DNA of 45,650 nucleotides from a virus: positions 1-45,650 of the IMG/VR virus record IMGVR_UViG_3300005096_000116; one strand, given 5' to 3'. Within the stretch, counting starts at the first letter, position 1, and every line of letters begins with the position of its first letter. The position numbers were made by a program, and so were the translations under genes. Below are positions 5,382-25,217 of this stretch, one piece after another. The notes beneath the pieces are model-generated. The model worked only from the letters and a program-made list of their open reading frames with translations. It had not been told where the DNA came from and ran no database searches.

Positions 5382-5563
5382 AAGTCACCTGTTTTCTGAG
5401 CATCTTTAATTTTCTGAGCATCTTTAATTTTCTGAGCATCTTTAATTTTCTGAGCATCTTCAGATAATGCTTGCATCACATGATTATATGCAGGAACTTC
5501 GCTGCCTTTAAGTTCAGTACGTGAAAGAAATTCAACACACAATTCAATAGCTTCTTTATCCAT
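5369..5563 (-). CDS. Hypothetical protein with DAQKIK tandem repeat (64 aa)
   Basis: ORF track; abuts the tailspike stop; contains an 18-bp in-frame tandem repeat. Confidence 0.55.
   Translation of the reverse strand: MDKEAIELCVEFLSRTELKGSEVPAYNHVMQALSEDAQKIKDAQKIKDAQKIKDAQKTGDLSEN
5392..5460. repeat. 18-bp tandem repeat, 3 perfect copies plus a 15-nt partial copy (ttttctgagcatctttaa)
   Basis: Read directly; in frame, encoding (DAQKIK)x3 then DAQKT. Confidence 0.95.
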
Positions 5564-7305
5564 CAGTTAAGTACTCTCAATGCTCTATAACCAGTGCCAC
5601 CACTATCAGCAGCACCTACTTCAATTCGTTTTAACGCACCACCGACATAGATCTCTACTGAGTTAGTAGCATCTCCATCAAATTGCATGGCTGTTAAAGT
5701 GTTTATGCTGTCGTAAATATTTAAATCATTAGTAAGATTTTTCTGTATGAGCCAATTGTCTGTACCTTGATCTGAAAAAGTAATAGTTGTGTTTTTAGTA
5801 GCTGTTGATCCACTGTCCAGCTTCAACCCTATATCATAGTCTGCACCGTTAGTAATGATTAAAGTTTGATTCCCACCATTAGACATTTTAACAAAGTTGG
5901 ACAGCGTAGCTATGCCACTGATATCTATAATATTAGTATGATTCCCTGTTACTTTTAAAACAGAATCTGAATTGCTTTCATCAAATATAGCTGCGTTTTG
6001 GAATGCGTTCACGGTGTCTGTAACACCACCGGGGTCTTTGTAAAAGTGAACGCCGTTTGAATAACATCTGGATAAAGAGACACCTTCATTCCACCATTTC
6101 ACACCTGTTGAATCATTCACCCACACGGTCGCGGCAGAGGTAAGACGACCATTACTACCACTATGACCTATGATCTCTATTGCGTTTTTCCTATAAGCTG
6201 GGGTAGATGAACCAGAGAACGGGTCTGTAATTGCATTACCAAATGTTCCTGCGACTTCAAATTCAACAGCCCTGACCATTCCGTCTGTGCCAGTAGCGTC
6301 TTGCAAAGCGCCGATGTTCTGCGCCCATAGATGCTTTCTGCCGTTCAAGTTGTTAATGATAACTTGTTGTGCAACAAAATCATTAGCTGCTGGTGTTGCT
6401 GTGGGGTTGTCGCCAATAAGTATTTGTTGACCAGCAGCTTCGCCCGCTGATGTTGATGAAGGGTCTGATAAAATAAACAAAGGTCCCCTGGTATTTGGAA
6501 GATATTTACCAATGCTAATAGCAGGGATAGCTTTAGTGTTGATTGTCGCACCATTACTATAAAAAGTTACACTGTGAGCGAATGTCAAAGACCCTACGGT
6601 ATAGTTAACACCATTAGATAGACGAAGTTCACGAGAAGCAGTGATGGCTGCTTGAAATTTTACAGTTTCATCACCGGAACCTACTGCACCAAAATCAGCA
6701 ACACTGGGTATGTCTAAATCTTTACTTTCCTGAGTTCTATTAACTCCACCTGTAAAATTATTCCCTGCGGAATATGTGATAATGTCAGCGTTTGTAGGTA
6801 CACCGGATGTCGCTAAATCAATATTTTCTATACCTGATAAATCACTTTTCCAACGGAGATATTTAACAGCATCAGGTGCATCTAAAGTTAAATTCAATGA
6901 ACCACTGTAACTGTCCTCTAACTTCATAGAACGATCAAATGTATCACGCAACTGCTGAATCAGAAATGTAAGATGATCCATCTGTGCTTCATGAATGTCC
7001 GGGAAGAACGCACCCTGCGATGAGAAATCTGTCAACTGATTCTCAGCACGATTCGATCTGATGTACCATTGATAGTTAGTTGGTAGGTTGCCGGCCAGTC
7101 GAACGAGCGTACCGCCGCCATCGACACCGATATTATTGACAGTGTAGTCTGTGTCAACGACGAGCAGCGTCTGTACACCCAGGTCGGTTGTTTCATAAAC
7201 CGATAGTTGAGTTTTATCAACAACAGTGAAGTCATATGAATAAGTATCATTCAGGTTATTGCCGACGTATGGGCCGGACGTGATGTTCAGGGTGCTGACT
7301 GTCAT
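5563..7305 (-). CDS. Tailspike / tail fibre protein (580 aa)
   Basis: Position after the ejection proteins. The N-terminal segment resembles podovirus tailspike head-binding domains. The Gly/Asn/Thr/Ser-rich remainder is consistent with a beta-helix. Confidence 0.65.
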   Translation of the reverse strand: MTVSTLNITSGPYVGNNLNDTYSYDFTVVDKTQLSVYETTDLGVQTLLVVDTDYTVNNIGVDGGGTLVRLAGNLPTNYQWYIRSNRAENQLTDFSSQGAFFPDIHEAQMDHLTFLIQQLRDTFDRSMKLEDSYSGSLNLTLDAPDAVKYLRWKSDLSGIENIDLATSGVPTNADIITYSAGNNFTGGVNRTQESKDLDIPSVADFGAVGSGDETVKFQAAITASRELRLSNGVNYTVGSLTFAHSVTFYSNGATINTKAIPAISIGKYLPNTRGPLFILSDPSSTSAGEAAGQQILIGDNPTATPAANDFVAQQVIINNLNGRKHLWAQNIGALQDATGTDGMVRAVEFEVAGTFGNAITDPFSGSSTPAYRKNAIEIIGHSGSNGRLTSAATVWVNDSTGVKWWNEGVSLSRCYSNGVHFYKDPGGVTDTVNAFQNAAIFDESNSDSVLKVTGNHTNIIDISGIATLSNFVKMSNGGNQTLIITNGADYDIGLKLDSGSTATKNTTITFSDQGTDNWLIQKNLTNDLNIYDSINTLTAMQFDGDATNSVEIYVGGALKRIEVGAADSGGTGYRALRVLN

Positions 7306-7341: not shown

Positions 7342-10300
7342 TTACTCACGGTCAGGACCAAATGCTAACTCTTTCAATGTAATTTCTTCACCTTCTTCAA
7401 GGTACTGGTATATTTCGTCGGATGTAGCCCAAGTCTGTGCTGCACCCGGGATATGAAATATAGTAGCTGCAAAAGTGAATATCCCTTTTTGTTGTGCTCT
7501 CGTCACTTCTTCACCTTCGTATAAATTTGAAGCTGCGCCATATATACTCTCAAGCCCGTTACCCACCAAATTAAAAGCTGGTGATGCATTGAATTTATGA
7601 TAATCAGACACAAACACATTCGCAGCGTCCCTTGCGTAAGGTACAGTACCTATGGTGGTGCTTGCCATCTTTGACATTATACGCTTCATATACTCATCTG
7701 GCTCTTCGTCTTCTTCAGGTTCAGCTTCACCTCTTATCAGCAATTCATACATAGTTGTGGCGAAAATCATGTAAAATATACCGGCTGCGAATTGAGATGA
7801 GCTGACCCAACCCTGCTTTTTACCTCTAACCAGCGTCCTTTGAACATTGAACGCTGTGTTAAACCAAGTCATGAATGAGAAAAACAATCTTGCTATCTGA
7901 TTATTAGTACCTAACATCGCACTCATGTTACTAATGTCACCTGAACCCTGTGATTGATCTACGAGCCAATCCGCATATTCAACAGCTTTAGATTCATCAC
8001 CCTCAAAATCAACCATACCTTTCTCAAACCCAGCGTGCCATACAGGAAAATCAACCACATACAGCTGGACATAACCTATTCCCATCATTGATGCACGTCT
8101 GAACGAAGCGATCTTTCCTTCTTTTACTTCTATCTGTTTCATAGCATCATTGAATTCTCGATCAAATGTTTTTAACCGGTGTCGTAATACTGATGATTTA
8201 AGTAGAGCAAAATCACGAGCAGCCCACCCTTCTTGTCCGTTGATAGGGATAGTTTTCAGCATACTCATTATACCTTGTGGTATATAACCTTTACCTTCCA
8301 TCATCAATGTTCTGGCAGTGAATAACCCTGATGGTTGTATTAATATAGTACTCAATTTATAACCTAAATATACATAAGTCATACCGGTACGAAGATGCCT
8401 GGCTAAGTTTGAACCAAACACTTGCGCTTCAGTAGCTCGACCACCTTTAGCTACACTACTCAACCACACATTCATCTTAGCGTACTCTTCTTTACCTAAC
8501 TTCCGTTTAAGTTTCATTGATATTACAGGGTCACGTATAATTTTATTCACTTGTCGAACTGTGTCGTAGTGAGTGATGTAGTGAATAACTTCCTGAAAAT
8601 GATCAGTAATCACACCAAGGTCGAAACGAATTGGCGCGTAGAACTCAGTACGCGTATGAGTTGCACCGGCTGTTACAGACTGATTCAAACTACCGAGTGT
8701 AGAAAACATTGATTCGAGTCGTGCTTCACGTTTGTCTTTAAAATCAGCAGCCCTCGCATCACGATCATGATCATATTGTAAAGTGTAATAACCACCTTTC
8801 ATTTTTCCAAACTTAGTTTGGAACTCAACCGGGTCTACCTTTTTAGGTGTCAGCCCAGTACCTTTAAGTGTTGTCTCAGATAATAAAGGGTACAAAGAGT
8901 CCATTGAATCCCATACTTGTTTTACTATTGACCAATCACTTTCTGTCATGTGATCTAAAACAGCTTGAAGTTTGGGGTTATTAATTGTTATCTCAGCTTC
9001 ATTATCAGGGTTAGCCCACCCTTCCCCAAGTAACATTTTACGAAGGTTACCAGCATTACCAGCATTCAATGCAACAGACAGTATTTGATGCCCATACAAA
9101 TAAGTATTAACAGGCACGTTATCTTCGTCCACTGCAGCTATCTCTGGAATGTATATTTTTTGGTGCATACGTTTCAAATCAGTATTAGGTCGGTTCTTTA
9201 TCGCAGTGATTAAAGGTAACGCTGTACTTTCCCATAAAGTCAATTCTTCATCTCTTGCTACAACAGTTGGTCTGTGAATTAAGGAAGTCATCAACCCAGC
9301 TGGTTCACCTTTATCTAACCAGAATGTCATAAACGGAACCTTTGACATCCATGAAACACCTTCACTTGAAACACGTTCAGTCCACTTTACTTTCCCTGTT
9401 ATCTTTTCAAGTAACGTATAACCCGTTTCATCTTTGCCTGTGGTGCGTTCCGGCCTAAATACGGTATCAAGTTTATCAAGATGATTAATTATTTTAGATT
9501 TTAACTTATCAAATTCGATACTCTCTTTTAGTAGAGTTATCTTATTTGCGTACTTGGCAACATACTCAATGTTCTTCACCGAGTCATTGATGCCCTGTAA
9601 GTCTGTGAACGGAACATTTTTCCAGTGAATCACGTAGGACTCATTCAAAACCTGCTTTGATAGCACCAATTCTTCACCATGTTTTTCAAGACGTTCTTTC
9701 GCCCACAGATTAATGCTGTCAACATCCTTCAGTGTTGCTGACTTTCTGAACTCGAAGCGTTCAAGTATCTTGACGATCTGATCCCAGTAACCACCTTCAG
9801 CTTTCATGATGGCTTCACGAACTTTCTTTTTACTGTAACGTGACATACGGTCGACGATTTTCACAGTGTCATTTTTCGCAGCTGTCGCCGCCATGCCGAG
9901 ATAATAGTTCAACACCTGACGCATCTTCGCAGCAGCAGCACCTTCACGGTTACCTTCAACCAGCATCCGAGCAGATTCCTGTGCAGCGCGGATCTCAGCT
10001 TTGCGGTATTTACCCGGGTGAATCTCACGGAACGACAGTCTGCCGATGCGTTCTTCAGCTAATGCTTTAATGGTTGCACGGTCAATCGTCGGCGCGTTGG
10101 TGCCACGTGCAACCATCTTCAGCTCATGCAGTAGCAACTTACCACGTTCTTCATCCCGCACTGCCTCATCAGCTTCACGCTCAATGGTGCCGTCGGTGAG
10201 AATATCACCATGGCGTTCAACCATTTTCGCTTCAGCGTTGACCTTTGCCTGGTCTTTGATAGCCGGTGCAGTGATCAGGTCAATCAACATCTCAGACCCG

Positions 10301-13300
10301 GAACCGTAACCGAAGAACGCAGCAGCTTCGTCCGGGTGCACACCTTTCATACCTTTTGCTGTCATACCGCTTAACGCGGGTGGAATGATTGTGCGTTTAT
10401 GACCTAATTTATTAGTGCGTTCTTCACCAGTCATTGCTTTGACAGCAGCGTGGTCGATTTTAAATGCGCCATTTTTAAGTTCTTCACGCGCCTTATAAAC
10501 CTGTTCTTTACTCAGTGACTGAAGTTCTTCATCAATGATGTCCTGCTTTTCTACTTTCCACCATTCCTTCGTTTGGCGTGTGAGTTGTTTAATGATTTTG
10601 TCACGCAGCGTTTCAGACTGTACATCTTTAACTTTCTCCTTACGTGCTTGATAATCAGCGAACTCTTCGTCAGTCATGCCGGCCATCGTCGCATCGGAGA
10701 ACATCGGCTCCACGCGAGCACGCGCCTGTGCAGCCTGTATCTGTTCCTCGGTAGCCAGCAGCCGGTCGAACACTTCACGCATTTGATTATCCAGGTTCAC
10801 GTTGAGCTGACCACGCAGCGCCTGATAGATACGTGACAGCCAGCGTGCAAACGCTCTGAACGCATTACGCAGCTCGATAGACGGTGCCTTACCTTCCATC
10901 AGATAAGCCTCGAACCCACGTGCAAACTGCTCATGCACAGCACGACGAATCGCTGCATCTTTATCACGGTCACCGGTTGTGTTGCTGTCTAGGAATATGA
11001 TTACATCATCAGCAGTGATTGAACCTTCTTTTGCGGTTGGTTGGTCTGTTGGTTGTGCGAACTGTTCATTAGCGATTGCGTCAGGTAACTTTGGTTTTTT
11101 AAATCCTGCTAATTCAGCTTCTTTTTCTGTTGCTTCAACAATCAACACAGGTACAGTTTTAACTCCTGCTTTTATTGCAGCGAGTGCTCTGTGACGACCT
11201 TCTTGTGATACTCGACCCTCTGAAACGTCATAAGTAAGCATGGGAAACTTTTCGCCGGCTTTCATTTTTTCCGTATAATCATCTACAGCTTCAGGTTCTA
11301 TATAATTCGGGTAATGTTTAGCTTCTATATCAATAACTTTTTTATTGTTTACATCAATATTCAGTGACTTAAGATAATTAAAAGGTGTGACATTAACTAT
11401 TTTCCATACTTTTCCTTTTTGTTCTTCAAAGTATTCTGGTAAACGCATCATGTCATCATAAAAAGGCATCTCAGTTGTTGTGTTATCGAACGCATTTAAA
11501 CCTTCACCACCCTGCTTCAACACATCAAACTTATCACCCAGGTAACTGTTCGCCTCTTTAGCCACATCATCAGCGTTACGTTTGTACCAGTTGTTGATTG
11601 ACTTCAGCATCTCGGTGTCACCCTTGAATTCCATCTCATACATGAAGTGAGCGAACTCGTGCAGGAACGTACTCAGATCAGCAGATTCAGTGAGTCTGAT
11701 GATACTGTTTGCCGGGTCATAGTAACCGCGTGCTGTTTTTGAATCGGTGCGTTGCCCCAAAGTAAAAGCATCAGGATCAGTTTTAATCGGTTGCGATACA
11801 AAATCAGGATCAAGTTCAAAACCCTGCTGACGTTGCAGTGAAGCCGGTGTGGTATCTGTTTCGATAAAATCTTCTTCAGCTAAACCGGCTTGTGGTTTCA
11901 GTGATTCGGGGAGGTCAGTGATGTCTTGTTGTGCTAGAAGATTAGCTGACGCTTTGAAGTCGGGGTCAAATGATGCGTTGACTGAGCGGATTTTGGATGG
12001 GTCGAATATTATAATGTCGTTACCGATACCGATAGAAGGTAACGACATCCCTTCATAACCTTTATTGATAAGTTCTGCTGTTAATTCAGGCGAAGGTTCT
12101 CTCCCGTCATAATTAAAAAGATTCAGCTTTTTAAGATACACAGGAATCTGCTGTTCCCCTTTCCCTTCAACATCTGCTGCAACTCTTGATTCTATCGGTG
12201 AATCTGCAAACCATATCCCAACAGGATCTTGTCTAAAACCTTCAAACTCACGATCAGTTGTGTGATACAAAACATTTTCAGTATCAAACCCCATCTCTTC
12301 AGCACGTTGCAATCGCGCTTCCTGAGACATATCCAACCCTTTATCAACAGCTTGTTTAAACTCAGATGCTTCGACTACTGACTCACCCTTGAACCCTGAT
12401 GATTTAGCTTGCGACAGCACCTGCTCACCCTCAAGTCGAGCACGCTCACCGGTCTGTGGACCTTCAACAATGAACCCTGCATTCTGATACGCTTCAACAA
12501 CAGTGATGCCTTCACGTTTAGCTTTTGCTGCAAAGTACAACGGCACCATCTCAGCCATTGTACTTGCCACTTTAGGGCTATACACACCGGTATCAATCAA
12601 CTGTTGACGGACAGCTTGTGAAATTTCTTGAGCATCAACATACTCGCTGGTGTTCTCCTGCGCTTCTTCCATCAACACCTTGATATAGTTGTCAGTCTCC
12701 TGTTTGGCTTGCTCCTGACGGAACGGTGACACTGTCTCGTCACTCATGGTCATACTATCACGCAGCTGTTCAAAATGGTCAGTAGCTGCTATTTCAGCAG
12801 CGAAGTCAGCAACTGGTATCTGCACATCAGAATCAAGTGCAGATGCTTCAGCAGCCTGTTCTGATAACAGCTTCAATGCCGGGTCAGCTTCGATCTCAGC
12901 CGGTGTTTTAGTTTGCAGATACAGTGACACCTGAGAACCGTCGATGAACACATTCGTATTGTTCTCACCGTCAGCTTCATTGACAAACTGTTTAAATGAT
13001 TCTTTGTCACGTTCTTTCAGTTTTGATTCTTGAGATTTTTCATTGAGCTGGTCAATTTTAGATTGTTCAACTGCACCTTTTGACTCGCTGACTGTTTCAT
13101 CACGGATGACAGCATCAATTGTTTTACGAATAGTAGTCGCAGCGGTGATCTGTGCGCCGCCGGCGACAACAGTGGCAATGGCTGTCACAGCTTGACGTTG
13201 TAATTGAATGTCAACCATCTCACTGACAGTTTCAGCATTGTTAATTTGTTCATCAAGATCAAAAGCGTAGGCGTTAATACTCTGACCCAGGGTGGCCAGC

Positions 13301-14286
13301 TGCTCAGTGCCCATCTCACGAACCATGAACTTCAAAGCATCTTTTTTAAGCCCGGTACTTTTACCTGTGATGATTGTTTCAAGTACACCAGTTGGTAACA
13401 TCTCAGTACCCACTTCAATAGTGGCATCGATGCCGGCATACCAACCAGCCTCACCAGGTGTTAAACCTTCAGCGCGACCTTGACCATAGGAACTACTGAA
13501 GGTCTGAACACCCATTGTGGCGAGCAGTGGTGCTGACCGACCACCTGATAACAACATTAAAGCGAAACCTGGTGCCATATTAACCAATGACTCAATACCG
13601 CCTCTGACGCCTTGTTCGAGCAAGTTCAAATCTTCAGGCGCAATGTCAGCACGTTTCTCGTTGAGACTTCTCAACTCTGTTAACAATTTATCAGTTGCAT
13701 CTGACTTTGCTTGCTGCAACTCTTCATCGGTGTCAATACCCATGCGCACGGCCAACGCTTTAGACTCAGATTGGGCGACCTGCTCCATACCAAAGGGTAA
13801 TCGACTCGCAGGAATTAGATCTTGAATCTTCGACGGTGTAATATCAGCACCAACTAACAGTGAACTCTTCTCTAGAGCACTGTAACCTAAACTTGTTGAT
13901 TCACCGAAACTTTTGAATGTTTTTTCAAAGTTGAATATATTTTCAATCGACTTCATGACGTCAACATCATCTTGAGCAATGATAGCGTTGTCGATATCAT
14001 TAAATCGATTCGCAGTGACAGGGTTGGTTTTACGCAGTTCACTGAAATCAAACTGAGATTTTTTAATGTCCTGCTCAACAGCGACAGGATCAGACTGCAC
14101 ACCGATGACCGGAATACCTGATTGTTTGCTCAAATTCAACTCTTTAGCATGCTGATCAGGATTAACCTTGACCGCTTCACTCATGTTGAAATTCAAACTG
14201 TCATTGACAGCATCATCCTCAACATTTTCACCAGGTGCTACCTGTGACAATGAACCTATGTCAACCTTACTCGGATCAAATGCCAT
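7342..14286 (-). CDS. Giant internal virion / ejection protein (T7 gp16 position), polyvalent: ART-like, HExxH zincin and ParB-like domains (2314 aa)
   Basis: Single 6.9-kb ORF after gp14/gp15-like genes. HEFAH at 11647-11661, EGRHRALAAIKAGVKTVPV (ParB/Srx-like) at about 11176-11202, LYHTTDREFEGF...IIIFDPSKIRSV at about 11962-12294. Hydrophobic segments near the C-terminus. Confidence 0.85.
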   Translation of the reverse strand: MAFDPSKVDIGSLSQVAPGENVEDDAVNDSLNFNMSEAVKVNPDQHAKELNLSKQSGIPVIGVQSDPVAVEQDIKKSQFDFSELRKTNPVTANRFNDIDNAIIAQDDVDVMKSIENIFNFEKTFKSFGESTSLGYSALEKSSLLVGADITPSKIQDLIPASRLPFGMEQVAQSESKALAVRMGIDTDEELQQAKSDATDKLLTELRSLNEKRADIAPEDLNLLEQGVRGGIESLVNMAPGFALMLLSGGRSAPLLATMGVQTFSSSYGQGRAEGLTPGEAGWYAGIDATIEVGTEMLPTGVLETIITGKSTGLKKDALKFMVREMGTEQLATLGQSINAYAFDLDEQINNAETVSEMVDIQLQRQAVTAIATVVAGGAQITAATTIRKTIDAVIRDETVSESKGAVEQSKIDQLNEKSQESKLKERDKESFKQFVNEADGENNTNVFIDGSQVSLYLQTKTPAEIEADPALKLLSEQAAEASALDSDVQIPVADFAAEIAATDHFEQLRDSMTMSDETVSPFRQEQAKQETDNYIKVLMEEAQENTSEYVDAQEISQAVRQQLIDTGVYSPKVASTMAEMVPLYFAAKAKREGITVVEAYQNAGFIVEGPQTGERARLEGEQVLSQAKSSGFKGESVVEASEFKQAVDKGLDMSQEARLQRAEEMGFDTENVLYHTTDREFEGFRQDPVGIWFADSPIESRVAADVEGKGEQQIPVYLKKLNLFNYDGREPSPELTAELINKGYEGMSLPSIGIGNDIIIFDPSKIRSVNASFDPDFKASANLLAQQDITDLPESLKPQAGLAEEDFIETDTTPASLQRQQGFELDPDFVSQPIKTDPDAFTLGQRTDSKTARGYYDPANSIIRLTESADLSTFLHEFAHFMYEMEFKGDTEMLKSINNWYKRNADDVAKEANSYLGDKFDVLKQGGEGLNAFDNTTTEMPFYDDMMRLPEYFEEQKGKVWKIVNVTPFNYLKSLNIDVNNKKVIDIEAKHYPNYIEPEAVDDYTEKMKAGEKFPMLTYDVSEGRVSQEGRHRALAAIKAGVKTVPVLIVEATEKEAELAGFKKPKLPDAIANEQFAQPTDQPTAKEGSITADDVIIFLDSNTTGDRDKDAAIRRAVHEQFARGFEAYLMEGKAPSIELRNAFRAFARWLSRIYQALRGQLNVNLDNQMREVFDRLLATEEQIQAAQARARVEPMFSDATMAGMTDEEFADYQARKEKVKDVQSETLRDKIIKQLTRQTKEWWKVEKQDIIDEELQSLSKEQVYKAREELKNGAFKIDHAAVKAMTGEERTNKLGHKRTIIPPALSGMTAKGMKGVHPDEAAAFFGYGSGSEMLIDLITAPAIKDQAKVNAEAKMVERHGDILTDGTIEREADEAVRDEERGKLLLHELKMVARGTNAPTIDRATIKALAEERIGRLSFREIHPGKYRKAEIRAAQESARMLVEGNREGAAAAKMRQVLNYYLGMAATAAKNDTVKIVDRMSRYSKKKVREAIMKAEGGYWDQIVKILERFEFRKSATLKDVDSINLWAKERLEKHGEELVLSKQVLNESYVIHWKNVPFTDLQGINDSVKNIEYVAKYANKITLLKESIEFDKLKSKIINHLDKLDTVFRPERTTGKDETGYTLLEKITGKVKWTERVSSEGVSWMSKVPFMTFWLDKGEPAGLMTSLIHRPTVVARDEELTLWESTALPLITAIKNRPNTDLKRMHQKIYIPEIAAVDEDNVPVNTYLYGHQILSVALNAGNAGNLRKMLLGEGWANPDNEAEITINNPKLQAVLDHMTESDWSIVKQVWDSMDSLYPLLSETTLKGTGLTPKKVDPVEFQTKFGKMKGGYYTLQYDHDRDARAADFKDKREARLESMFSTLGSLNQSVTAGATHTRTEFYAPIRFDLGVITDHFQEVIHYITHYDTVRQVNKIIRDPVISMKLKRKLGKEEYAKMNVWLSSVAKGGRATEAQVFGSNLARHLRTGMTYVYLGYKLSTILIQPSGLFTARTLMMEGKGYIPQGIMSMLKTIPINGQEGWAARDFALLKSSVLRHRLKTFDREFNDAMKQIEVKEGKIASFRRASMMGIGYVQLYVVDFPVWHAGFEKGMVDFEGDESKAVEYADWLVDQSQGSGDISNMSAMLGTNNQIARLFFSFMTWFNTAFNVQRTLVRGKKQGWVSSSQFAAGIFYMIFATTMYELLIRGEAEPEEDEEPDEYMKRIMSKMASTTIGTVPYARDAANVFVSDYHKFNASPAFNLVGNGLESIYGAASNLYEGEEVTRAQQKGIFTFAATIFHIPGAAQTWATSDEIYQYLEEGEEITLKELAFGPDRE

Positions 14287-15972
14287 CTATTTTGTTCCCT
14301 GTGAATATGCGTTTTTGAGAGTTTGTGCGTTGATTGGTTGACCATTATCGATTAGGAACTGATAAGCATCAGTCAGGTCAATAAGGTCAATATTCGGTGT
14401 ACTGTCGATAATCTGATTCAGCATTCTGACATCTTTAGCCGGTGCGTTACTCAAATCAATCTCAGTATCAGAAGCCAAGATGTCAAATCCGAATGCAGAA
14501 CGCTCAACAGCAATCTGACGTGTGAACTCGCCGATGATTTTATTTTCTTCAGCTGGTGTAGCGAGCCGGCTATTTTCAATTTTAAACTCATCAAGTGCAT
14601 CTTGAAGGTCGGTAAGGAATTGGTTCGCAAGCCTACCTTTTTCAGTAGGGCCACCTGATTTTTTACGCCACTTACGTTTATCTCCGAATGCACCTTCTGC
14701 TGCTATCATAGATTTAGAAGATAGCGCCTTTACTCGACTGCCTGGATCACCTTTCTTCGCTGCATCAATCTCAGTTCTGAGTTTTTGCAAATCGGATGGT
14801 CGCAATTGGGCTGAGTAATCAGCAGCATTGAGTTCAGCTTTTTTGGCGGGAGGTAATGATCGCAATTTATCAAACAGTATCTGGTCAGTAACCATGTGCT
14901 TGCCAGATAAAATGTTGTTACGTTGTAAATCAGTCATTCCCACCCATGCTTCAGGGTTCTGTGACTCAACCTGTATCGGTGTAGCACCTTTATTCACTGC
15001 GGCAATAGCAGCCTGATAGTCAGAATTCTGCTTTTCTTTTTCAGCAGTGCGTTTCTGATTGAACTGAGCTGTTGCTTCGATTCGTGTTTTCTTCTGTAAC
15101 TCAGGATCTTTGATATTGCTGATTTCTTCCATGATATCACTGCGATTATCGTAAGTATCAACAAGTTTACTAGCTCTTAATACAGATTCTTTAGCATTAA
15201 ATTCTGAATCCTCAACCTTCTTTTTCTTCTCAATAAGACCTTTGAGTTTAACCTTGTCCGGGCCTTCGAGATTTTTACCATATTTTTCCATTGCCTCTTT
15301 AGCATCGACTGAACTTGACTGTAACGCAGCCTCAATGGACGCTCTGGCAAATGATGAATCAAATGTTTCTAACTTTTCTGTGGCAACATCACTGATCTTA
15401 CCGTCTTCGTCATAATATAGACCTTGTAATTTCATAGAATCAATAATAGCTCGACGACCAACTTCCACTTGAACTTTTAACCTTGCAGGGTCTTTATAGT
15501 ATATTGACGCATTTTCAACAGCGTTCTCAACTTTAGAATCAAGTGTTGCTATATCCCATGTTTTAAGACCTTTCAAAGAATGCTGATTAATATTATTCCG
15601 GTCACGTGTAATCATTACATCAAATGATTTATCAAACATCTGTTTAGATTGCTGATTTAATGTCTCACCGTACTTCATCTTCAAGTCATCGAGCGCCTGA
15701 GTAGCAGCGACAGAGTTATCATAAGCATCACGACCAGAAGTATTGAAATACTTAGACAAAAGTTCGTTCTTATCACGCTCAACATTCACCAGTGCTTCTT
15801 CTGCCGTAGTAGTGTCAACACGCTGCTTGAGTTCAAACCCGACTTTAGCAACGTCGAGCACACCTTTAGCAATAGGAGCACCGAACGCATCAGCCGGCGC
15901 GTCTTTCGCCAATGGTTGTGATACCACCTGTGACTGTACTTGATTAGCTTCGTACTGTGCGACTTTAGGCAT
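14287..15972 (-). CDS. Internal virion protein (T7 gp15 position; 561 aa)
   Basis: Position between the gp14-like gene and the giant protein; long helical, charged sequence; start overlaps the upstream ORF. Confidence 0.55.
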   Translation of the reverse strand: MPKVAQYEANQVQSQVVSQPLAKDAPADAFGAPIAKGVLDVAKVGFELKQRVDTTTAEEALVNVERDKNELLSKYFNTSGRDAYDNSVAATQALDDLKMKYGETLNQQSKQMFDKSFDVMITRDRNNINQHSLKGLKTWDIATLDSKVENAVENASIYYKDPARLKVQVEVGRRAIIDSMKLQGLYYDEDGKISDVATEKLETFDSSFARASIEAALQSSSVDAKEAMEKYGKNLEGPDKVKLKGLIEKKKKVEDSEFNAKESVLRASKLVDTYDNRSDIMEEISNIKDPELQKKTRIEATAQFNQKRTAEKEKQNSDYQAAIAAVNKGATPIQVESQNPEAWVGMTDLQRNNILSGKHMVTDQILFDKLRSLPPAKKAELNAADYSAQLRPSDLQKLRTEIDAAKKGDPGSRVKALSSKSMIAAEGAFGDKRKWRKKSGGPTEKGRLANQFLTDLQDALDEFKIENSRLATPAEENKIIGEFTRQIAVERSAFGFDILASDTEIDLSNAPAKDVRMLNQIIDSTPNIDLIDLTDAYQFLIDNGQPINAQTLKNAYSQGTK

Positions 15973-16214: not shown

Positions 16215-16754
16215 TCAGGCCCCCAGCGTCAGACGAGTGTCAGGGGTTATGAAATCTACATTTACGCCTGCACTGTTTGGTGTGAACCATTTATCAGAGA
16301 CACCTGTTCCTGCAACTGATGCGGCACCGCTGAGTAGAGTACCGGCAGCACGGTTAACACCTGTTAATGAAGCATAGTCACCCTGGCGACGTGTTAAATC
16401 TGCGCCGGTATTCAGTGAATTAACTTTCGCATCAGCATTACTACGGATACGCAGCGCATCAGCTTCACCGAGCGTGACAGTATCTTCCTGTAATTGTAGA
16501 GCCGAACCAGATGTTAGATCGATGTTGGCAGCGCCAAGTTGTGCTTTTTGTTTTGATAACAGTTCGGCTGTTTTACGACGTTGGATGTTTTCTGCTTCAT
16601 TCGCCACATTGCGTGTACTTTGTGCTTCGTTCTCAGCAACACGTGCATTATATCTGGAAACACCTTTTTGAAATCTACCTCGTTGAATCTGAGAAGTCGC
16701 CGTCATTAAAGTTGACGCAGCTATCATTATAGGTACTGCTGCTGGTCCACACAT
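16215..16754 (-). CDS. Internal virion protein (T7 gp14-like; 179 aa)
   Basis: N-terminal hydrophobic segment (AAVPIMIAASTLMTA) followed by a helical AENEAQ... region; position. Confidence 0.55.
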   Translation of the reverse strand: MCGPAAVPIMIAASTLMTATSQIQRGRFQKGVSRYNARVAENEAQSTRNVANEAENIQRRKTAELLSKQKAQLGAANIDLTSGSALQLQEDTVTLGEADALRIRSNADAKVNSLNTGADLTRRQGDYASLTGVNRAAGTLLSGAASVAGTGVSDKWFTPNSAGVNVDFITPDTRLTLGA

Positions 16755-17221
16755 TAGTTCGCCCTCTCAAGATAAAATTTATGAAATGACTCTCGGTCAT
16801 ACCCATAAGGTGCCGGCTCGTCAAAAGTGAAGCCGATTCGTTTCAACCACCGAATGCTGACTTCATTGTCAACATGTACATAATTAAACAGTTTTGGACA
16901 AATGTCCAGCATTTCATCAATGACATCAGGTACTTGCGTAATAAAATGACGTTTATATTTTAAAGCATTGTTCGTACCGAGCAACCACACCACCCCTGTT
17001 CCGGCTAATATATCATGAATCACCAACCCTAACATCACGCAAAGCTCGTCATTGACCGTTATCACCACGGAGTAATCTGATATCTTGAAACCTTTTAACA
17101 GCGCCTCGCCGGGTGTCTGGTGGTTTGAAGCCCATATCTCATCGATGTCAGCCTGGCGCATGTCAACAGCAATCGATTTAATCAATTCAGTTGTCGGCTG
17201 TAGGAATTTAACCTGTTGCAT
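16754..17221 (-). CDS. T7 gp13-like / GNAT-fold internal virion protein A-like (155 aa)
   Basis: C-terminal NEVSIRWLKRIGFTF motif typical of acetyltransferase-fold phage proteins (DUF2833-like, from memory); position before the gp14-like gene. Confidence 0.45.
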   Translation of the reverse strand: MQQVKFLQPTTELIKSIAVDMRQADIDEIWASNHQTPGEALLKGFKISDYSVVITVNDELCVMLGLVIHDILAGTGVVWLLGTNNALKYKRHFITQVPDVIDEMLDICPKLFNYVHVDNEVSIRWLKRIGFTFDEPAPYGYDRESFHKFYLERAN

Positions 17222-17558: not shown

Positions 17559-20111
17559 TCAACTACCACCAACATCCACTCTTGGAATAACAGACAATAT
17601 CGCCATAGGCAGCGGTGAGCGTTGTTCAATGCGTACCCCGCCACCCTTGCTCCACTGCGGATCGATGACCACTTCTTGCTTATAAGTCCTCAATGCAATC
17701 TGATCATACCCGTCTGCGTCAAAGCGAGGTTTAATCTCCTGGAATGTGACCTGCTCACCACTGGTTGCATCTTTCCGGCCGCCGACGAACCCACCACGCG
17801 ACCCTTCAACTTCAATGAACACTTTAGACACTGACACTGACTTCGATTTCACCTGTTCCTGTGCAGTGTCGATATCAAGTAACTCAATAGTAGGGGTATA
17901 AGACAACCCTGCGTGTACTTTATTAGCAGCACGATCAAGTGTGACAGATCCGGACGATACAGTCTTACCTTCAACCACGTAACCATCGGCCAGAATGTCA
18001 ACAGTTTCACCTTCGAGATGATCTAAACCTGAAACAGTTGTTATAACTATGAGCGAATTCCCACCTGTTGTGTATGCAGTGAACAATGTACCATCGACAC
18101 CTGATAGTTCAAAAGTGGTAGCAGTGACATTAGCGATAATGTAGACGTTATCATTCAATTCAGTCATACCGACAACATCTTCTATACGAACACTTTCACC
18201 GTTGCTGTAATTATGTGAAGTTATAGTGGTAATAACAACAGGGTTTGATTGAATAGCACCTGTTATTACTGCGGATATACCGTTATAACTCAGACCTGAA
18301 TCAACATAGAAAGCATCTTCAGCGATTTTACTTTCACGTTTCTCAATTCGTTCAACATACCGCACAGTCGAACCGTTAATTGTTCGTTTAACAATGACAT
18401 ACGTCGCATCACGGTTATCTTCACTAATGGTGGCCACTGACTCAAATTCGCCAGCAGCGCCGGTGGTATGATGATGCCAACCCCACACCTGTTGTTCGCG
18501 TTGGTAAGTCAGCCCGAGCATCACACCGTCGTTACGCACGCACCACAGTATTCCATAAGGTTCAGCAGCAAACGCCATCTCAAGAATCGTCTGATCTTCA
18601 AACAGATGCTCAGACATCAGTGATAAATCGTTACCGGTATATTTATCACTACTAAATTCATATCCAAGGTCACGTATCCGGGCACTCTTTTCTTGCAGGT
18701 ACAGCGCCGTACTGTTGACAATTACAGGTTTAACCCATGACGCACCATTGTATGACTGAATGCGTGCACCAATCGTCGATGGTGTAAGCACTTCATCTCG
18801 ACCTTCAGTGACTTTCCACTCACCTCCGGAGGTCAACAGGATCATGGCATCAAGTGAAATGATGTGCCGGATCTCATTCACCTGTTGAGCGGCAATGGTG
18901 AACGTCACAGCGTCGTCGTCGCGCGCCGGGTTTGATGTACGCAATGAGTTAAAATTATTCGTCTGCGTCGTAAAGGTCGCCTGCGGTTCATTATTCGTGT
19001 TAGCGAACACCTGACGTTGCTGATAATAACTGACTACCGCTGGCTTATCATCAACAGCGGTGAACGGTTGTCTATCTTCAGGCGGCGCATCACTGGTGAT
19101 CGGTGCAATATTGTAATCGTCAAACGTGTTGTTGTTTGAGTCACCTATCCAGCCGAAAACCTGTGTATTATTAGAAGGGTCTTTATATATCCGGTAATAG
19201 CTGGCACCTGACACAGCACCCCAGGACAACCTGACACCACCCGTCACTGATAATGAACCTGTAGTGATAGATGACGACGATGATGCTAACGATTCAACTC
19301 CGTCGCTGTCAACAGCAGTGACAACATAAGTGTAAGTTTTGTCATAAGTACCAAAACCTGAACCGACAGTTGTCGCAGCGGTAGTACGTGTTGCAGTACC
19401 ACCAGAAGTATAGGCACTGTGCAACGTTGAATCTTCACCATCGAGTTGAAAACTGTTAGCATCAATCACTGTTATTCTAAATGAACGACCATTGACTTCC
19501 GTCATTCCAACAACAGCAGCGATGTCAACAATGTTACCGGTTGAAAAAGTGTGACCCGTAGCAGTAACAACAGCAGGGTTTGCTTGTGTGATGCCTGTGA
19601 TCGTTTTAACAGTGTCTCCTGCAAAAGTAGGTGCAGTGACTGTCGATGCATAACTGATCACTGTCAGTGTCCAGTTGTCATCGGCCAGCCGATTAAGATT
19701 GCGCGGATCATGACTGGGGTGAGTAATGGTCATCACATCAGCATTTTGCGTATAACTAAGTCGAGATAGTTGAGCTTCAGTATATGGTGTGGTCAATTCA
19801 AAGATGGCAGGACCACTGCCGGCCAGCACATAACCACCTGCTTTAATGACGCGCATTTTCAAGTGTTCAAAGACGAGCATGTAAGTTTGTTCAGTATTGA
19901 AACTGAACGGTATTAATCGACCAACATTAGATGAATTACCCAACTCACCGATGAACTTCAATCCAGGACGTGAATAAACACCACCTTGAGCACGCACAAA
20001 GAAATTCTCACAGAGGTTTAACCCTGTCGAATATTTGATAATGTCAGCGCGTGACTGTAACGACGGTGAAATCTCACCTGATGTAAAACTCCGTTGAATG
20101 ATTTCTGGCAC
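17559..20111 (-). CDS. Tail tubular protein B-like / nozzle protein with two inserted FCCH/SH3-like repeat domains and an Fn3-like domain (850 aa)
   Basis: Size and position after the 217-aa adaptor-like gene. Two paralogous approx 68-aa segments (ITQANPAVVTATGHTF...GMTEVNG...YTSGG and IQSNPVVITTITSHNY...GMTELND...YTTGG). Confidence 0.5.
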   Translation of the reverse strand: MPEIIQRSFTSGEISPSLQSRADIIKYSTGLNLCENFFVRAQGGVYSRPGLKFIGELGNSSNVGRLIPFSFNTEQTYMLVFEHLKMRVIKAGGYVLAGSGPAIFELTTPYTEAQLSRLSYTQNADVMTITHPSHDPRNLNRLADDNWTLTVISYASTVTAPTFAGDTVKTITGITQANPAVVTATGHTFSTGNIVDIAAVVGMTEVNGRSFRITVIDANSFQLDGEDSTLHSAYTSGGTATRTTAATTVGSGFGTYDKTYTYVVTAVDSDGVESLASSSSSITTGSLSVTGGVRLSWGAVSGASYYRIYKDPSNNTQVFGWIGDSNNNTFDDYNIAPITSDAPPEDRQPFTAVDDKPAVVSYYQQRQVFANTNNEPQATFTTQTNNFNSLRTSNPARDDDAVTFTIAAQQVNEIRHIISLDAMILLTSGGEWKVTEGRDEVLTPSTIGARIQSYNGASWVKPVIVNSTALYLQEKSARIRDLGYEFSSDKYTGNDLSLMSEHLFEDQTILEMAFAAEPYGILWCVRNDGVMLGLTYQREQQVWGWHHHTTGAAGEFESVATISEDNRDATYVIVKRTINGSTVRYVERIEKRESKIAEDAFYVDSGLSYNGISAVITGAIQSNPVVITTITSHNYSNGESVRIEDVVGMTELNDNVYIIANVTATTFELSGVDGTLFTAYTTGGNSLIVITTVSGLDHLEGETVDILADGYVVEGKTVSSGSVTLDRAANKVHAGLSYTPTIELLDIDTAQEQVKSKSVSVSKVFIEVEGSRGGFVGGRKDATSGEQVTFQEIKPRFDADGYDQIALRTYKQEVVIDPQWSKGGGVRIEQRSPLPMAILSVIPRVDVGGS

Positions 20112-20113
20112 GT

Positions 20114-20767
20114 TTATCTCCTGACGGTTTCAAATTCAGACAACGGCGGTTCACTGGCTCCTTCATTCAAATCATCAGCGATGGCTGCGCTCAAATATTC
20201 TTTATACATTTGCAATGAGTCACTGCGTAACTGTCGCCCGACTTCGGCACCAATTAACGGTATAGCCAGCTCAGATGATATCAGGTGCGATAACGCCATG
20301 ATCATATCTTCACTGAATAAATTCGGATCTGTCACCTTTGCAGTGTAACTGATGCGTAAATCTGATTCGTTTGCACCGATCAATTTAACATCATCAAAAT
20401 TAAATACTTCATAAGGGATAATCGGTTGTGTGTCTCTAATCGGTAATAACTGACTGTCGAGTAACCGTGACACAATAGCGGCATCCGCATTTGATAACTC
20501 TTCATGAGCACCGACGAGTCGTTTAATTTTCAAACAATCATTCGGGTATTGATAAGCAGTCGACCAGTTAAATATATCCGTGGTAGACACAGCGAGTGTT
20601 CTGATTTTGTTATTGAATCCCCACGATTCTTTGAGCACTCTATTACGCAGAATCGGGTATTTCAATTTACACTGTTGTGCCTGAAGGTTGCTTTCATCGA
20701 GGGAATTTATACTACCTGCACGAATGTTTGACAATCCCAGGTTACATATTTCTACTTCGCTAGTCAT
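20114..20767 (-). CDS. Tail tubular protein A-like / head-tail adaptor (217 aa)
   Basis: N-terminal EICNLGLSNIRAGSINSLDESNLQAQQCKLKYP motif, which I recall from podovirus adaptor / tubular A-type proteins; position. Confidence 0.45.
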   Translation of the reverse strand: MTSEVEICNLGLSNIRAGSINSLDESNLQAQQCKLKYPILRNRVLKESWGFNNKIRTLAVSTTDIFNWSTAYQYPNDCLKIKRLVGAHEELSNADAAIVSRLLDSQLLPIRDTQPIIPYEVFNFDDVKLIGANESDLRISYTAKVTDPNLFSEDMIMALSHLISSELAIPLIGAEVGRQLRSDSLQMYKEYLSAAIADDLNEGASEPPLSEFETVRR

Positions 20768-21494: not shown

Positions 21495-23000
21495 CTATTT
21501 AAAAAGTTTCGACCATTTAATGCCAGGCACTTCCCCGCCATTACTTGAAGTGGCGGCATGTAAACAATCAAGCGAAACCTGCAAGCCCCCGCGTTTGCTC
21601 TCAATAAGACAGGCAAAAGCCCCCTCACCAACAACACATTTGTATTCAAGTCCTCTGCCGGTTGCACCCTGCTGTAAACCATTTATCTGTCCGTGCAATC
21701 CAGGGTTCCAGCCAACATTGCCCGATAACACGCAATAAATTGGTGCAGAGTTCTTATTCTTACCTGTGTCAACAAACACGCCACCCCCATGCGTATCACC
21801 CATTACAAAGATGGTGCGGTAAGGATTTCCATTTGAGCGAATATAATCAAATATCTCGTCTCGCTCATAGGTATACCCTTTCCAGCCATACCAGTTTGCA
21901 GTGTCTTGATCCCATCCATGATTACCATCAAGCATGTTTCCGCTTATAACAACTAGATACTTCTGTGTATTAGAATCAACAGTTGCTTTCAACCATGCCT
22001 TTTGCGCTGCGCCAAGTTTAGATTTGCTTGGCGAATCAGCGTTAAAGCGATAATCACCATCAGTTGTTGTATCCTTCACGATAACTCTACATGGCGGCAC
22101 ATCGACATAATAATAATGGTGATCGCTAACGTAAGGAGTCCACGGTGTATCTTGCTCTACAAGTGCTTTGTTTAGCGACATATAAAGCTCTTGCCCGGTA
22201 TCTCTGCCCGTTACCCACCGAGTTGCTTCATCGCCTACTGCAATCGCGCGACCACTACAGTCATTAAATGCTCTGCCGTGATCTCCCCACATATAATATG
22301 ACGGTACGCCGACCTTAAACTCAGCCATTGTATTGCCTTGCGCGTATGTACGACTACCGCCCCCAGTTGACGCTAAATATCCAAGATTATTCAATCCAGA
22401 ATATGTATTAATAAAGTTTGTCCGGTATTTATCGGCGGTTGCATCAACGTGTGCTGGCGGGTTAAAAAACTCACCTGCTGCATAAGCTGTTGGCACGGCT
22501 GGAAAGTTGCTTTGAATGTCGGAGTAATAAATATCATCATTATGGATAGCGAAATCCAAGTTATGATTAAGAAGTCTTGAGAAAACAGCGGAGTACTGAG
22601 CAGCGCCGTCATTTGTCTTTAACGGATGCCAAGGAGCACAGCCTATAACTGCAGCTTTCCAGTTAGATACCTCATTCGATAATGTTTTAATACTTCCTGC
22701 TGTAAATGTGGACTCTGTGCCGTATGTTGGCGCATCAACACCGTTGTCATGCTTTGTTCGCCAGTAAAATTTACGCCCCGATTTTAATCCAGTAACATAA
22801 GAAGTATCTCTATAATGGTGCAATGCGGCTACTGCAATAACGGTCGCAATAAACCCTTGTGTTACGCGCTTATATTCAGGATCATCAAATACCTCTAGCG
22901 TGAAATCACATGCCTGATCTGCGCGACATTGCACAGCAAAACCATCAGACGTTAACCCTCCTGCCCATGCGCCTTCCCGTGGCAATGTTACAGCAGCCAC
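21495..23000 (-). CDS. PhoD-like metallophosphoesterase (alkaline phosphatase D / phosphodiesterase family; 501 aa)
   Basis: N-terminal beta-sandwich pattern (YVTGLKSGRKFYWR). Metallophosphatase-like motifs IHNDDIYYSD, MWGDHGRAFND, LVVISGNMLDGNHGW, FVMGDTHGG, and LGAAQKAWL as in PhoD. Confidence 0.65.
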   Translation of the reverse strand: MAAVTLPREGAWAGGLTSDGFAVQCRADQACDFTLEVFDDPEYKRVTQGFIATVIAVAALHHYRDTSYVTGLKSGRKFYWRTKHDNGVDAPTYGTESTFTAGSIKTLSNEVSNWKAAVIGCAPWHPLKTNDGAAQYSAVFSRLLNHNLDFAIHNDDIYYSDIQSNFPAVPTAYAAGEFFNPPAHVDATADKYRTNFINTYSGLNNLGYLASTGGGSRTYAQGNTMAEFKVGVPSYYMWGDHGRAFNDCSGRAIAVGDEATRWVTGRDTGQELYMSLNKALVEQDTPWTPYVSDHHYYYVDVPPCRVIVKDTTTDGDYRFNADSPSKSKLGAAQKAWLKATVDSNTQKYLVVISGNMLDGNHGWDQDTANWYGWKGYTYERDEIFDYIRSNGNPYRTIFVMGDTHGGGVFVDTGKNKNSAPIYCVLSGNVGWNPGLHGQINGLQQGATGRGLEYKCVVGEGAFACLIESKRGGLQVSLDCLHAATSSNGGEVPGIKWSKLFK

Positions 23001-24785: not shown

Positions 24786-25217
24786 TTAAGCACCAGTGAC
24801 GTTCGTCTGGTTACCCATAGTGATGCCAGCTGTGATCTTACCAGTGGTCGGTGTAGTACCGACAACCACGTACTCGATACCAAGATACCGTTCAGTGATA
24901 TCGTTCGGCAACAGATGAGCGGGGAACTGATAACCGACCACCAAATCAGCAAGTAAAACGACTTTGCTGATAACGGTTGTACCCAAACCGGTAGTCGAAC
25001 CCGTAGAAATTTTAATCTCCAATGATGTCAGGTTATTAAAAGCTTCGGTAACCTGAACCAAAAGCGGAACACCTGCACCTTTACCAACGTCATCGTTGAG
25101 TGCAGCTGCGCCACCGTATGGTGTACCCGGTGTACCTAAATCGATGACGTTGGTAGAGTCAGCACTTGCTGTAATCGCCTGGTCATCAGAGAATATTTGT
25201 TGAGCTGAAAAAATCAT
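24786..25217 (-). CDS. Capsid decoration/cement protein (BPP-1 Bbp16-like, from memory; 143 aa)
   Basis: Position immediately after the major capsid gene; Gly/Thr-rich beta-type sequence; followed by a strong terminator. Confidence 0.5.
   Translation of the reverse strand: MIFSAQQIFSDDQAITASADSTNVIDLGTPGTPYGGAAALNDDVGKGAGVPLLVQVTEAFNNLTSLEIKISTGSTTGLGTTVISKVVLLADLVVGYQFPAHLLPNDITERYLGIEYVVVGTTPTTGKITAGITMGNQTNVTGA

Follow-up and report, generated by a model that had tools for sequence, protein, structure and literature searches.

How much of a phage ejection protein is machinery, and how much is cargo? The question is raised by a stretch of viral DNA of 45,650 nucleotides, the IMG/VR record IMGVR_UViG_3300005096_000116 (the window, taken here at its full length), where a single gene at 7342-14286 encodes a giant protein of 2314 residues. 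An earlier note had placed in the middle of this protein three consecutive effector modules, resembling an ADP-ribosyltransferase (ART), a zincin with a HExxH motif and a ParB-like domain, none of them needed to build an ejection channel. What we find is a scaffold made of a 626-residue N block carrying an LPD22 domain, a HExxH domain in two halves and a C block of about 1150 residues, into which two of these modules, and two only, have been placed as passengers. With some confidence, we understand the giant protein as a scaffold of the IVP-D type (IVP for internal virion protein) with defined slots that carry exchangeable passengers into the cell, the HExxH domain probably processing the polyprotein.

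The gene is open on the minus strand only, as a single frame of 2314 residues, and the plus-strand reading of 7342-14286 was rejected, its translation being full of stops. The open reading frame had been announced with no strand; its coordinates fit the minus strand, to which the genes of the window described below belong except where the plus strand is named. A tblastn search with the giant protein returned 50 phage records, Bbp10 of Bordetella phage BPP-1 appearing at E 2e-90. BLASTP against Bbp10 gave E 6e-108 over residues 1108-2220 and E 5e-33 over residues 38-601, and phrog_9880 matched residues 1108-2292 at E 2e-248. Three proteins, Bbp10, gp16 of Pseudomonas phage AF and gp39 of Caulobacter phage Jess A, share 27-29% identity with it across some 1200 residues. 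T7 gp16 itself gave no direct profile match, and no T7 gp16 family was among the Pfam families returned for the giant protein. Bbp10 is listed as a homologue of IVP-D (T7 gp16), in the epsilon15 subgroup, in Table 2 of Hardies et al. (2016; PMC4819975), and it is through this published status, combined with the homology, that the assignment of the giant protein to the T7 gp16 slot holds.

At the N-terminal end, the conserved block (residues 1-626, 12409-14286) ends with VLSQ at residues 623-626 and shares, from residue 8 onwards, 54-56% identity with its homologues in four Vibrio phages. It contains the LPD22 domain (residues 37-120, 13927-14178; PF18834, 55.3 bits for a cutoff of 28.6, E 8e-15), known as a marker for polyvalent proteins (Iyer et al., 2017). 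In a Pfam scan of the full 2314-residue protein LPD22 alone was significant; segment by segment, the scan reached ART-PolyVal at up to E 1.5e-4 and returned no ParB or peptidase family. The scans with domain hidden Markov models that had been proposed as a check thus gave LPD22 above its cutoff and ART-PolyVal below it, but neither MPTase-PolyVal nor ParB_N in the window. At the other end, the remainder of the conserved C block (residues 1161-2314, 7345-10806) is supported by phrog_9880 and by its similarity to Bbp10, AF gp16 and Jess A gp39. The portion that was modelled, up to residue 1200, is predicted to be helical, and a hydropathy scan of the block revealed one hydrophobic segment, at residues 2166-2184 (7735-7791). 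This block is presumably the channel or scaffold part. Large size, an LPD marker, several effector-type domains and a structural gene context are what defines polyvalent proteins, and the giant protein displays them all, with LPD22, an ART-type and a ParB/sulfiredoxin-type domain.

Comparison with relatives separates what is fixed from what moves. We used 35 further IMG/VR loci, 29 full-length proteins serving to define the slots. The nearest cultured relatives are the Vibrio phages PS25B.1, 1.021.A, MZH0603 and 1.185.O, at about 54% identity. Against these four, BLASTP finds residues 8-626, 832-926 and 1084-2314 conserved, while residues 627-831 and 927-1083 are unique to the window protein. 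Three positions vary in length among the 29 relatives, between flanks that keep an identity of about 50%. Slot 1 precedes the HExxH block and holds from 0 to 852 residues; slot 2, after the HExxH block, holds about 20 residues in most relatives and 150-239 in six proteins including that of the window; slot 3, near window residues 1200-1281, has about 150 extra residues in four. All four nearest cultured relatives do without the ART-like and ParB-like modules of the window, and MZH0603 has no passenger in either slot 1 or slot 2; the two modules are therefore dispensable for the scaffold. On this point the earlier note was right for two of its three modules, but not for the HExxH domain. The region of interest, given as 11122-12294, was also too narrow: the functional region extends over residues 627-1160 (10807-12408).

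The contents of the slots are cassettes of recognizable kinds. At or above Pfam cutoffs, relatives carry PBECR5 nuclease and ART-PolyVal domains, with maxima of 77 and 101 bits respectively, and GNAT, GGDEF (27 bits) and Zeta_toxin (44 bits) domains, and homologues of the central domain are seen with ART-PolyVal, PBECR3, LPD3, MuF_C and GNAT. The modules are shuffled as mosaics: ART modules are found at slot 1 or at slot 2, and ParB-like modules occupy slot 1 in three relatives (L012, L023 and L016). Among the cultured Vibrio phages the same slot holds nothing, a GNAT domain or modules of unknown type. This repertoire agrees with the one listed for polyvalent proteins by Iyer et al. Some individual cassettes deserve a mention of their own. 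Slot 1 of locus L008 (residues 651-939 of its giant protein) holds a GGDEF diguanylate cyclase-like module at 27.4 bits, and that of locus L033 (residues 627-904) a Zeta toxin kinase-like module at 44.5 bits. At slot 3, loci L004 (phage 1.185.O), L012, L017 and L019 share a module of about 150 residues (NDTIGxFLAKKGGLNRESM..EGVDP..FK...GKPLFP..GG(M/L)T), for which Pfam gave no significant match.

The passenger of slot 1 in the window is a divergent module of the ART-PolyVal type (residues 627-786, 11929-12408), identified with Pfam and BLASTP and ending with LLAQ. It contains LYHTTDREFEGF at residues 673-684 (12235-12270) and NDIIIFDPSKIRSV at residues 756-769 (11980-12021); indeed, all the motif strings that had been quoted for the giant protein are present. 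BLASTP relates the module to the slot 1 modules of loci L011, L015 and L031 at E 6e-19 to 2e-21, that of L011 scoring 79 bits for PF18760, and of five database homologues (E 1.8e-18 to 6.5e-5) three carry PF18760. As judged from these alignments, the homology of the segment to modules above the Pfam cutoff is secure. The active site of ART-PolyVal is made of a His on strand 1, a Tyr on strand 2 and an Asp on strand 5 (Iyer et al., 2017; PMC5512222). In the window H675 (LYHTT) aligns with the family His and D762 (IFDPS) with the Asp of the closest subfamily; in the Tyr column stands W692, where modules above cutoff have Tyr or Phe and other aligned modules Trp or His. The suggestion that ND replaces a usual catalytic Glu was drawn from the wrong template, since the family is of the His-Tyr-Asp type and its Asp is there. 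The broader resemblance to the ART-type domain of polyvalent proteins survives, as homology to PF18760 modules with H675 and D762 in place, but below the Pfam cutoff.

Is this module still at work? Several features count against it. The cutoff of PF18760, 31.2 bits, is reached neither in the full protein (11.9 bits) nor on the isolated segment (22.9 bits, E 1.5e-4), where only profile positions 8-67 of 140 are covered. The Trp stands at the Tyr position of the His-Tyr-Asp triad; the Thr that follows H675 (YHTT) is found in the window only, 13 of 13 aligned relatives having Gly there (YHG[TS]); and the module is the shortest of the aligned set. Because of this sub-threshold score, the two substitutions and the short length, the ART-like module of the window may be inactive. 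A search of PDB sequences with the segment gave one NUDIX match, at chance level. After the module comes a 59-residue linker (residues 787-845, 11752-11928) with FVSQ and TLGQ, which by eye can be read as repeated junction-like 'DPD...Q' elements. Elsewhere, in locus L044, a free-standing homologue of the ART module (203 residues, 7814-8425) is encoded shortly, by a few genes, after an ejection protein gene like P22 gp7 and after two large genes, without annotation, for 439 and 816 residues.

The passenger of slot 2 is a ParB/sulfiredoxin-fold module (residues 926-1078, 11053-11511, ending with QFAQ), recognized through PHROG profiles, homologues and Foldseek. Its characteristic string EGRHRALAAIKAGVKTVPVLIV occupies residues 1029-1050 (11137-11202); the string had been noticed before, but the interval 11176-11202 given for it covers only its first part. 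The segment itself, read at the outset as ParB/sulfiredoxin-like, is real: it has 11 homologues, at E 2.5e-18 to 4.3e-9, mostly free-standing proteins of 130-138 residues. These free-standing proteins share with the window a Y, a D, KFP, SQEG-HR and VPVL, and in the box of GxxR type, QEGRHR (residues 1028-1033), G1030, H1032 and R1033 are invariant in 12 of 12 family members. The PHROG phrog_1033 (ParB-like) matches at E 1.1e-5, followed by six weaker ParB PHROGs, and weak matches to ParB sequences of the PDB (E 0.3-0.5) bring the GxxR boxes into register.

Structure prediction by AlphaFold2 (AF2) gave the module a confidence (pLDDT) of 69 when modelled alone and above 90 within a larger construct (model 2). 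Searched against the PDB with Foldseek, both models have almost exclusively ParB-N, Srx (sulfiredoxin), Noc, Osa and PadC among their top 20 or so matches, and viral proteins annotated ParB/Sulfiredoxin in BFVD were matched at E 1.3e-3 with probability 1.0. The models thus assign the slot 2 module to the ParB/sulfiredoxin fold. Structure prediction, put forward as a check of the whole region, spoke for this fold but gave no zincin for the HExxH model. Other observations make the assignment less comfortable: the PDB Foldseek values are weak (E 0.013 to 1, TM 0.35-0.55), Pfam ParB_N does not match the window segment and reaches E 0.006 in one of 12 homologues, and the profile of the ParB-like family found only SbnI in the PDB, at E 0.42. 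A canonical role in partition and DNA binding was considered and rejected, the module of about 150 residues having no helix-turn-helix or dimerization domain; the Pfam family DdrB-ParB gave no match to it at E up to 10. The GC content at third codon positions (GC3) is 0.222 in the module, for 0.588 and 0.427 in the flanking HExxH halves, and this low value suggests a recent insertion. Separately, a phage-like contig (L043) encodes a free-standing homologue of 134 residues (8001-8405), and also an NAD kinase, a NAMPT/NAPRTase and an NMNAT-NUDIX protein.

One could also see the passengers of the window as decayed relics or inert spacers, in slots that tolerate insertions or where insertions add bulk to the capsid core, the scaffold alone being what matters. 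The ART module speaks in this direction, with its score below the Pfam cutoff and, close to the NAD pocket, Thr in place of Gly and Trp in place of Tyr; so does MZH0603, which manages with slots 1 and 2 empty, and so does the 59-residue linker if interpreted as leftover junction fragments. Yet H675 and D762 were retained, the ParB module has lost none of the residues that its free-standing homologues share without exception, and its low GC3 points to a recent gain. Moreover the cassettes of relatives score well above Pfam cutoffs, which argues that the contents of the slots are under selection. We consider the relic explanation unlikely, and keep the understanding of the slots as carriers of exchangeable passengers.

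There remains the HExxH domain, which turned out to be of a different nature. Its first half (residues 846-925, 11512-11751, ending with VLKQ) is conserved in the four Vibrio phage relatives and begins with the hairpin ARGYYDP..IIRL, followed by the helix of LSTFLHEFAHFMYE; HEFAH lies at residues 876-880, exactly at 11647-11661 as the earlier note had it. The block ARGYYDP..IIRL..LSTFLHEFAH is invariant across these relatives. The second half (residues 1079-1160, 10807-11052), delimited by alignment of homologues, contains HEQFARGFEAYL at 10909-10935, where E1119 and E1126 are candidates, on their conservation, for the third metal ligand. A single HExxH in 2314 residues would not be rare by chance (about 0.06 expected, as a rough estimate). 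A search with residues 832-1200 returned 75 proteins, and in an alignment of 46 diverse homologues 43-44 retain H876, E877 and H880, while 43 retain E1119 and as many E1126. It is this conservation which makes the motif more than a chance occurrence.

The second conserved block, HExFARGFExYLxEGKAPS..L..F..F..WL, corresponds to window residues 1118-1150. In most homologues it follows the HExxH block at a distance of only about 35-60 residues, and both blocks are found together in some 44 of them; in Bbp10, AF gp16 and Jess A gp39 they are 48-66 residues apart. In the window, 238 residues extend from H880 to H1118. Adjacent in homologues, the two blocks belong to one domain, and the ParB module, placed between the HExxH helix and the conserved HEQFARGFE helix, is therefore nested inside it. 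The modules are consequently not three in a row, as first thought: one was inserted within another. The domain is present in every relative examined, including those in BPP-1, Pseudomonas phage AF and Caulobacter phage Jess A, and is no optional effector. An exhaustive profile search collected 12,430 clusters at E<=1e-3, of which 7,039 at E<=1e-30, mostly proteins of 1.9-3.3 thousand residues. The position of the HExxH motif varies from residue 663 to residue 1961, and a large slot 2 insertion is found in 4 of 116 representatives. By staying constant amid changing surroundings, the HExxH domain shows itself to be a core element of the scaffold and not a swappable effector. In AF gp16 (L041) a second HExxH, VVMHEVQHAIQ, occurs at residue 807, some 200 residues upstream of the conserved one, and may be an extra peptidase-like passenger.

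Is this core domain a protease? In model 2, of 369 residues, two strands precede the HExxH helix, with pLDDT of about 68-74, and the later conserved Glu is also on a helix (residues 832-850 are below 50); a hairpin, a HExxH helix and a later helix with a conserved Glu would fit a minimal zincin. The database searches returned little. MPTase-PolyVal, the family to which the zincin motif had been likened, has zero Pfam matches in the window or in 57 aligned homologues. Among Pfam peptidases nothing was significant for the domain, DUF6782 being the best at E 0.01, with Peptidase_M3 and M78 at about 0.03; Foldseek with the 369-residue model found no zincin, its matches being dominated by the nested ParB module; and the sequence profile of the domain returned only coiled-coil noise from PDB sequences. 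With more than 12,000 protein clusters and no significant Pfam match, the HExxH domain is an annotation gap.

If it is a peptidase, it may be asked whether it would act on host proteins after injection, the hydrophobic-x-Gln ends described below being then mere features of domain boundaries. Both roles, effector and processing, are allowed for the metallopeptidase domains of polyvalent proteins (Iyer et al., 2017; PMC5512222), and a hydrophobic-x-Gln motif upstream of the HExxH, at a fixed distance from it, could belong to the fold. Across more than 12,000 clusters, however, neither the position nor the sequence of the domain varies, and its surroundings are swapped, which is what is expected from a housekeeping part rather than from an effector engaged in an arms race, and the junction motif also ends unrelated modules that do not touch the HExxH domain. 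An effector peptidase seems to us improbable, and we return to a domain that would process the polyprotein to which it belongs.

In the window, the sequence hydrophobic-hydrophobic-x-Gln ends the N block (VLSQ), the ART module (LLAQ) and the HExxH block (VLKQ), and the ParB module ends with FAQ (hydrophobic-x-Gln). In relatives, PBECR5 ends with LLFQ, a second type of ART with IFKQ, the Zeta toxin with ALRQ and GNAT with FAQ. Among non-redundant slot 1 ends, 15 of 19 have hydrophobic-hydrophobic-x-Gln, for 4.6% expected; within slots overall the strict motif is little enriched (54 observed, 43.6 expected), so that the enrichment is positional, at module ends. When 116 representatives at <=50% identity were considered, a hydrophobic-x-Gln was present within the 28 residues upstream of the HExxH domain in 94%, against 34% of random windows, with Leu, Phe or Tyr at P3 and a depletion of hydrophobic residues at P1'. 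The motifs that bracket the ParB module, VLKQ and FAQ, lie in loops of low confidence in the AF2 model (residues 919-927 and 1076-1085), the only such loops in that region, and this would fit exposed processing sites. Iyer et al. (2017; PMC5512222) foresaw a processing role for the metallopeptidase domains that polyvalent proteins carry, and the junction motif may, we infer, be a processing site.

This has to be weighed against less favourable facts. The upstream motif stands at a fairly fixed distance from the HExxH, 26-36 residues, and could for this reason be part of the HExxH domain itself; cleavage at VLKQ would split that domain; and the virion proteomics of phage phiRIO-1, which belongs to a different group and encodes no identifiable protease, gave no clear sign of proteolysis of its structural proteins (Hardies et al., 2016; PMC4819975). 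That the HExxH domain is a self-processing protease cutting at hydrophobic-x-Gln ends, which would make of the whole a plug-and-play polyprotein, is a tentative proposal, one that we would rather not bet on. Were it true, a junction motif at its end would be enough for any cassette placed at one of the three slots to undergo packaging, injection and then release in the host cytoplasm, much as the effectors of MARTX toxins are released, and the nested ParB/sulfiredoxin module would be excised by the same cuts.

Processing might also be the work of another enzyme, a capsid maturation protease acting in the prohead, and the HExxH domain would then serve for metal binding or structure. T4 Alt and the T4 internal proteins are cleaved by the capsid maturation protease inside the prohead, and the prohead proteases of T4 and phiKZ cut packaged proteins at short hydrophobic-x-Glu motifs. 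The window has a possible candidate, the gene between portal and capsid (26298-27038), which matches phrog_458, 'protease', at E 9e-53. Its product, on the other hand, has no Pfam match, peptidase families included, and is acidic and of low complexity, more like a scaffolding protein, and no hydrophobic-hydrophobic-x-Gln is found near the N terminus of the capsid protein. We hold this alternative to be quite doubtful, and continue with the IVP-D scaffold and its probable processing by the HExxH domain.

We can therefore propose the following scenario, in which packaging, delivery, enzymatic activities, proteolytic processing and targets are all inferred. The capsid core would contain the giant protein, whose ejection would come before the DNA or together with it. 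In this way the passengers would enter the cell and, early in infection, act on macromolecules of the host: the ART of slot 1 would ADP-ribosylate a host target, and the ParB/sulfiredoxin module of slot 2 would either nick DNA or have a nucleotide as its ligand or as a substrate for hydrolysis. Processing of the polyprotein would most likely fall to the conserved HExxH domain, with the hydrophobic-x-Gln ends of modules as possible cleavage sites.

The genome in which this gene resides agrees with its assignment. At about 45.6 kb and 43% GC the window is a complete phage genome, with exact copies of a 91-bp direct repeat at 1-91 and 45560-45650 that are either a true terminal repeat or the assembly overlap of a circular contig. 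The structural genes comprise a portal of T7 type (27285-28964, Pfam Head-tail_con), an epsilon15-type capsid protein (25277-26278, Pfam GP7), a cement protein (24786-25217, Pfam Bbp16), and the tubular tail proteins A (20114-20767) and B (17559-20111, 850 residues), both recognized by PHROG. Then come two internal virion proteins, like T7 gp13 (16754-17221; PF11090, 33 bits for a cutoff of 25; phrog_308, E 2e-40) and like T7 gp14 (16215-16754; PF24072, 28.4 bits for a cutoff of 27; phrog_418, E 8e-30), and a gene for 561 residues at the position of gp15 (IVP-C; 14287-15972; phrog_10475, E 3e-14). The end of the latter directly abuts the start codon of the giant gene, and its position matches that of bbp11 in BPP-1 and of gp15 in phage AF. 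Downstream of the giant gene is a tail fibre or tailspike gene (5563-7305, PHROG), whose N-terminal 120-250 residues are similar, at E 3e-22 at best, to PHROGs of tail fibres and tail spikes. This order recurs from bbp14 to bbp9 in BPP-1 and from gp13 to gp16 in Pseudomonas phage AF, and the giant gene is thus the ejection protein gene, in the T7 gp16 slot, of a podovirus of the BPP-1/epsilon15-like group. The placement of that slot after gp13-, gp14- and gp15-like genes, as first proposed, is borne out by the Pfam matches for gp13 and gp14, by the homology to Bbp10 and by the tail fibre gene downstream.

Other features of the genome can be recorded for themselves. The tubular tail B protein has two copies of an E1_FCCH domain (82.6 bits), and its relatives are annotated likewise. 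Two further genes of the structural module encode a 501-residue protein with a PhoD-like phosphatase domain (21495-23000, 53.9 bits) and a 371-residue protein with a concanavalin A-like / Laminin_G_3 domain (23002-24117, 45 bits). A single tRNA gene, for tRNA-Gln with anticodon UUG, was found by ARAGORN and Rfam at 43063-43136, on the plus strand.

What is the interest of this setup? Since 2016-2017 the prediction has stood that phages use polyvalent virion proteins as first-strike weapons, and experimental tests are scarce. This locus and its relatives form a natural experiment, where the cassette at a given slot of the shared scaffold differs from one relative to another. Precise swaps at the slots would allow the role of a single passenger to be tested, and the junction motif tells at which exact positions virion proteomics can look for neo-termini. 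Should processing be confirmed, the slots could serve for the delivery of chosen proteins to bacteria along with the phage genome.

The concept itself was published in 2016-2017, and the window protein is accordingly not a new kind of system. Internal virion proteins were said to 'variably host ... domains destined for the cytoplasm' (Hardies et al., 2016; PMC4819975), and combinations of ART, ParB, GNAT, PBECR and metallopeptidase domains have been catalogued in virion-associated polyvalent proteins (Iyer et al., 2017; PMC5512222). The idea of passengers on an ejection protein, in a combination first put forward as uncharacterized, was already in print in both papers. A putative polyvalent protein of 2,198 residues is essential in phage PTXU04 (PMC11879866). 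Literature searches for more recent experiments on cassettes of this kind in ejection proteins brought up nothing specific.

With the phage-type polyvalent proteins catalogued by Iyer et al. (PMC5512222), ours shares the large late-gene product encoded beside structural genes, the association of LPD22, an ART of the His-Tyr-Asp type, ParB/sulfiredoxin and HExxH domains, GNAT and PBECR modules (here in relatives) and a predicted delivery with the DNA. They differ in that the HExxH domain of the window has no MPTase-PolyVal match and its ParB module no DdrB-ParB or ParB_N match, and in that the passengers are here at three fixed slots of an ejection scaffold, one of them nested in the HExxH domain. 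With the IVP-D/T7 gp16 proteins (PMC4819975), ours has in common the slot after tubular tail B and the gp13- and gp14-like genes, the homology to Bbp10, and the idea of a tube-forming protein carrying domains bound for the cytoplasm. The cargo is different: a virion RNA polymerase in N4 gp50 and a methylase-like domain in gp60 of Pseudomonas phage H66, ART-like and ParB/sulfiredoxin-like modules here; neither an exchange of cassettes between close relatives nor a junction motif is described in the sections of Hardies et al. (2016) that were read.

The P1 DdrB/Dar proteins and T4 Alt, as generally known and as recounted by Iyer et al. (PMC5512222), are enzymes packaged in the capsid and injected, a fate predicted for the giant protein as well. 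DdrB has ParB-type and metallopeptidase domains, Alt is an injected ART, and both are proteolytically processed. They are separate head proteins, however, not fused to an ejection channel protein; T4 Alt is an ART of the Arg-Ser-Glu type and the window module one of the His-Tyr-Asp type, and the ParB/sulfiredoxin module belongs to a small family different from that of DdrB, its closest relatives being free-standing phage proteins of about 130 residues. The MARTX toxins of Vibrio provide an analogy, from general knowledge: they too are large delivery scaffolds with variable effectors, and an embedded protease cuts them at short junctions. There is no homology between the two, and the protease of MARTX is a cysteine protease, activated by inositol hexakisphosphate, that cuts after Leu, where cleavage is hypothesized here from the conservation of the hydrophobic-x-Gln motif. 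To these systems the present locus adds three fixed slots, an exchange of cassettes visible among cultured relatives, a passenger nested within a conserved domain, a junction motif and the size of the family that shares this core.

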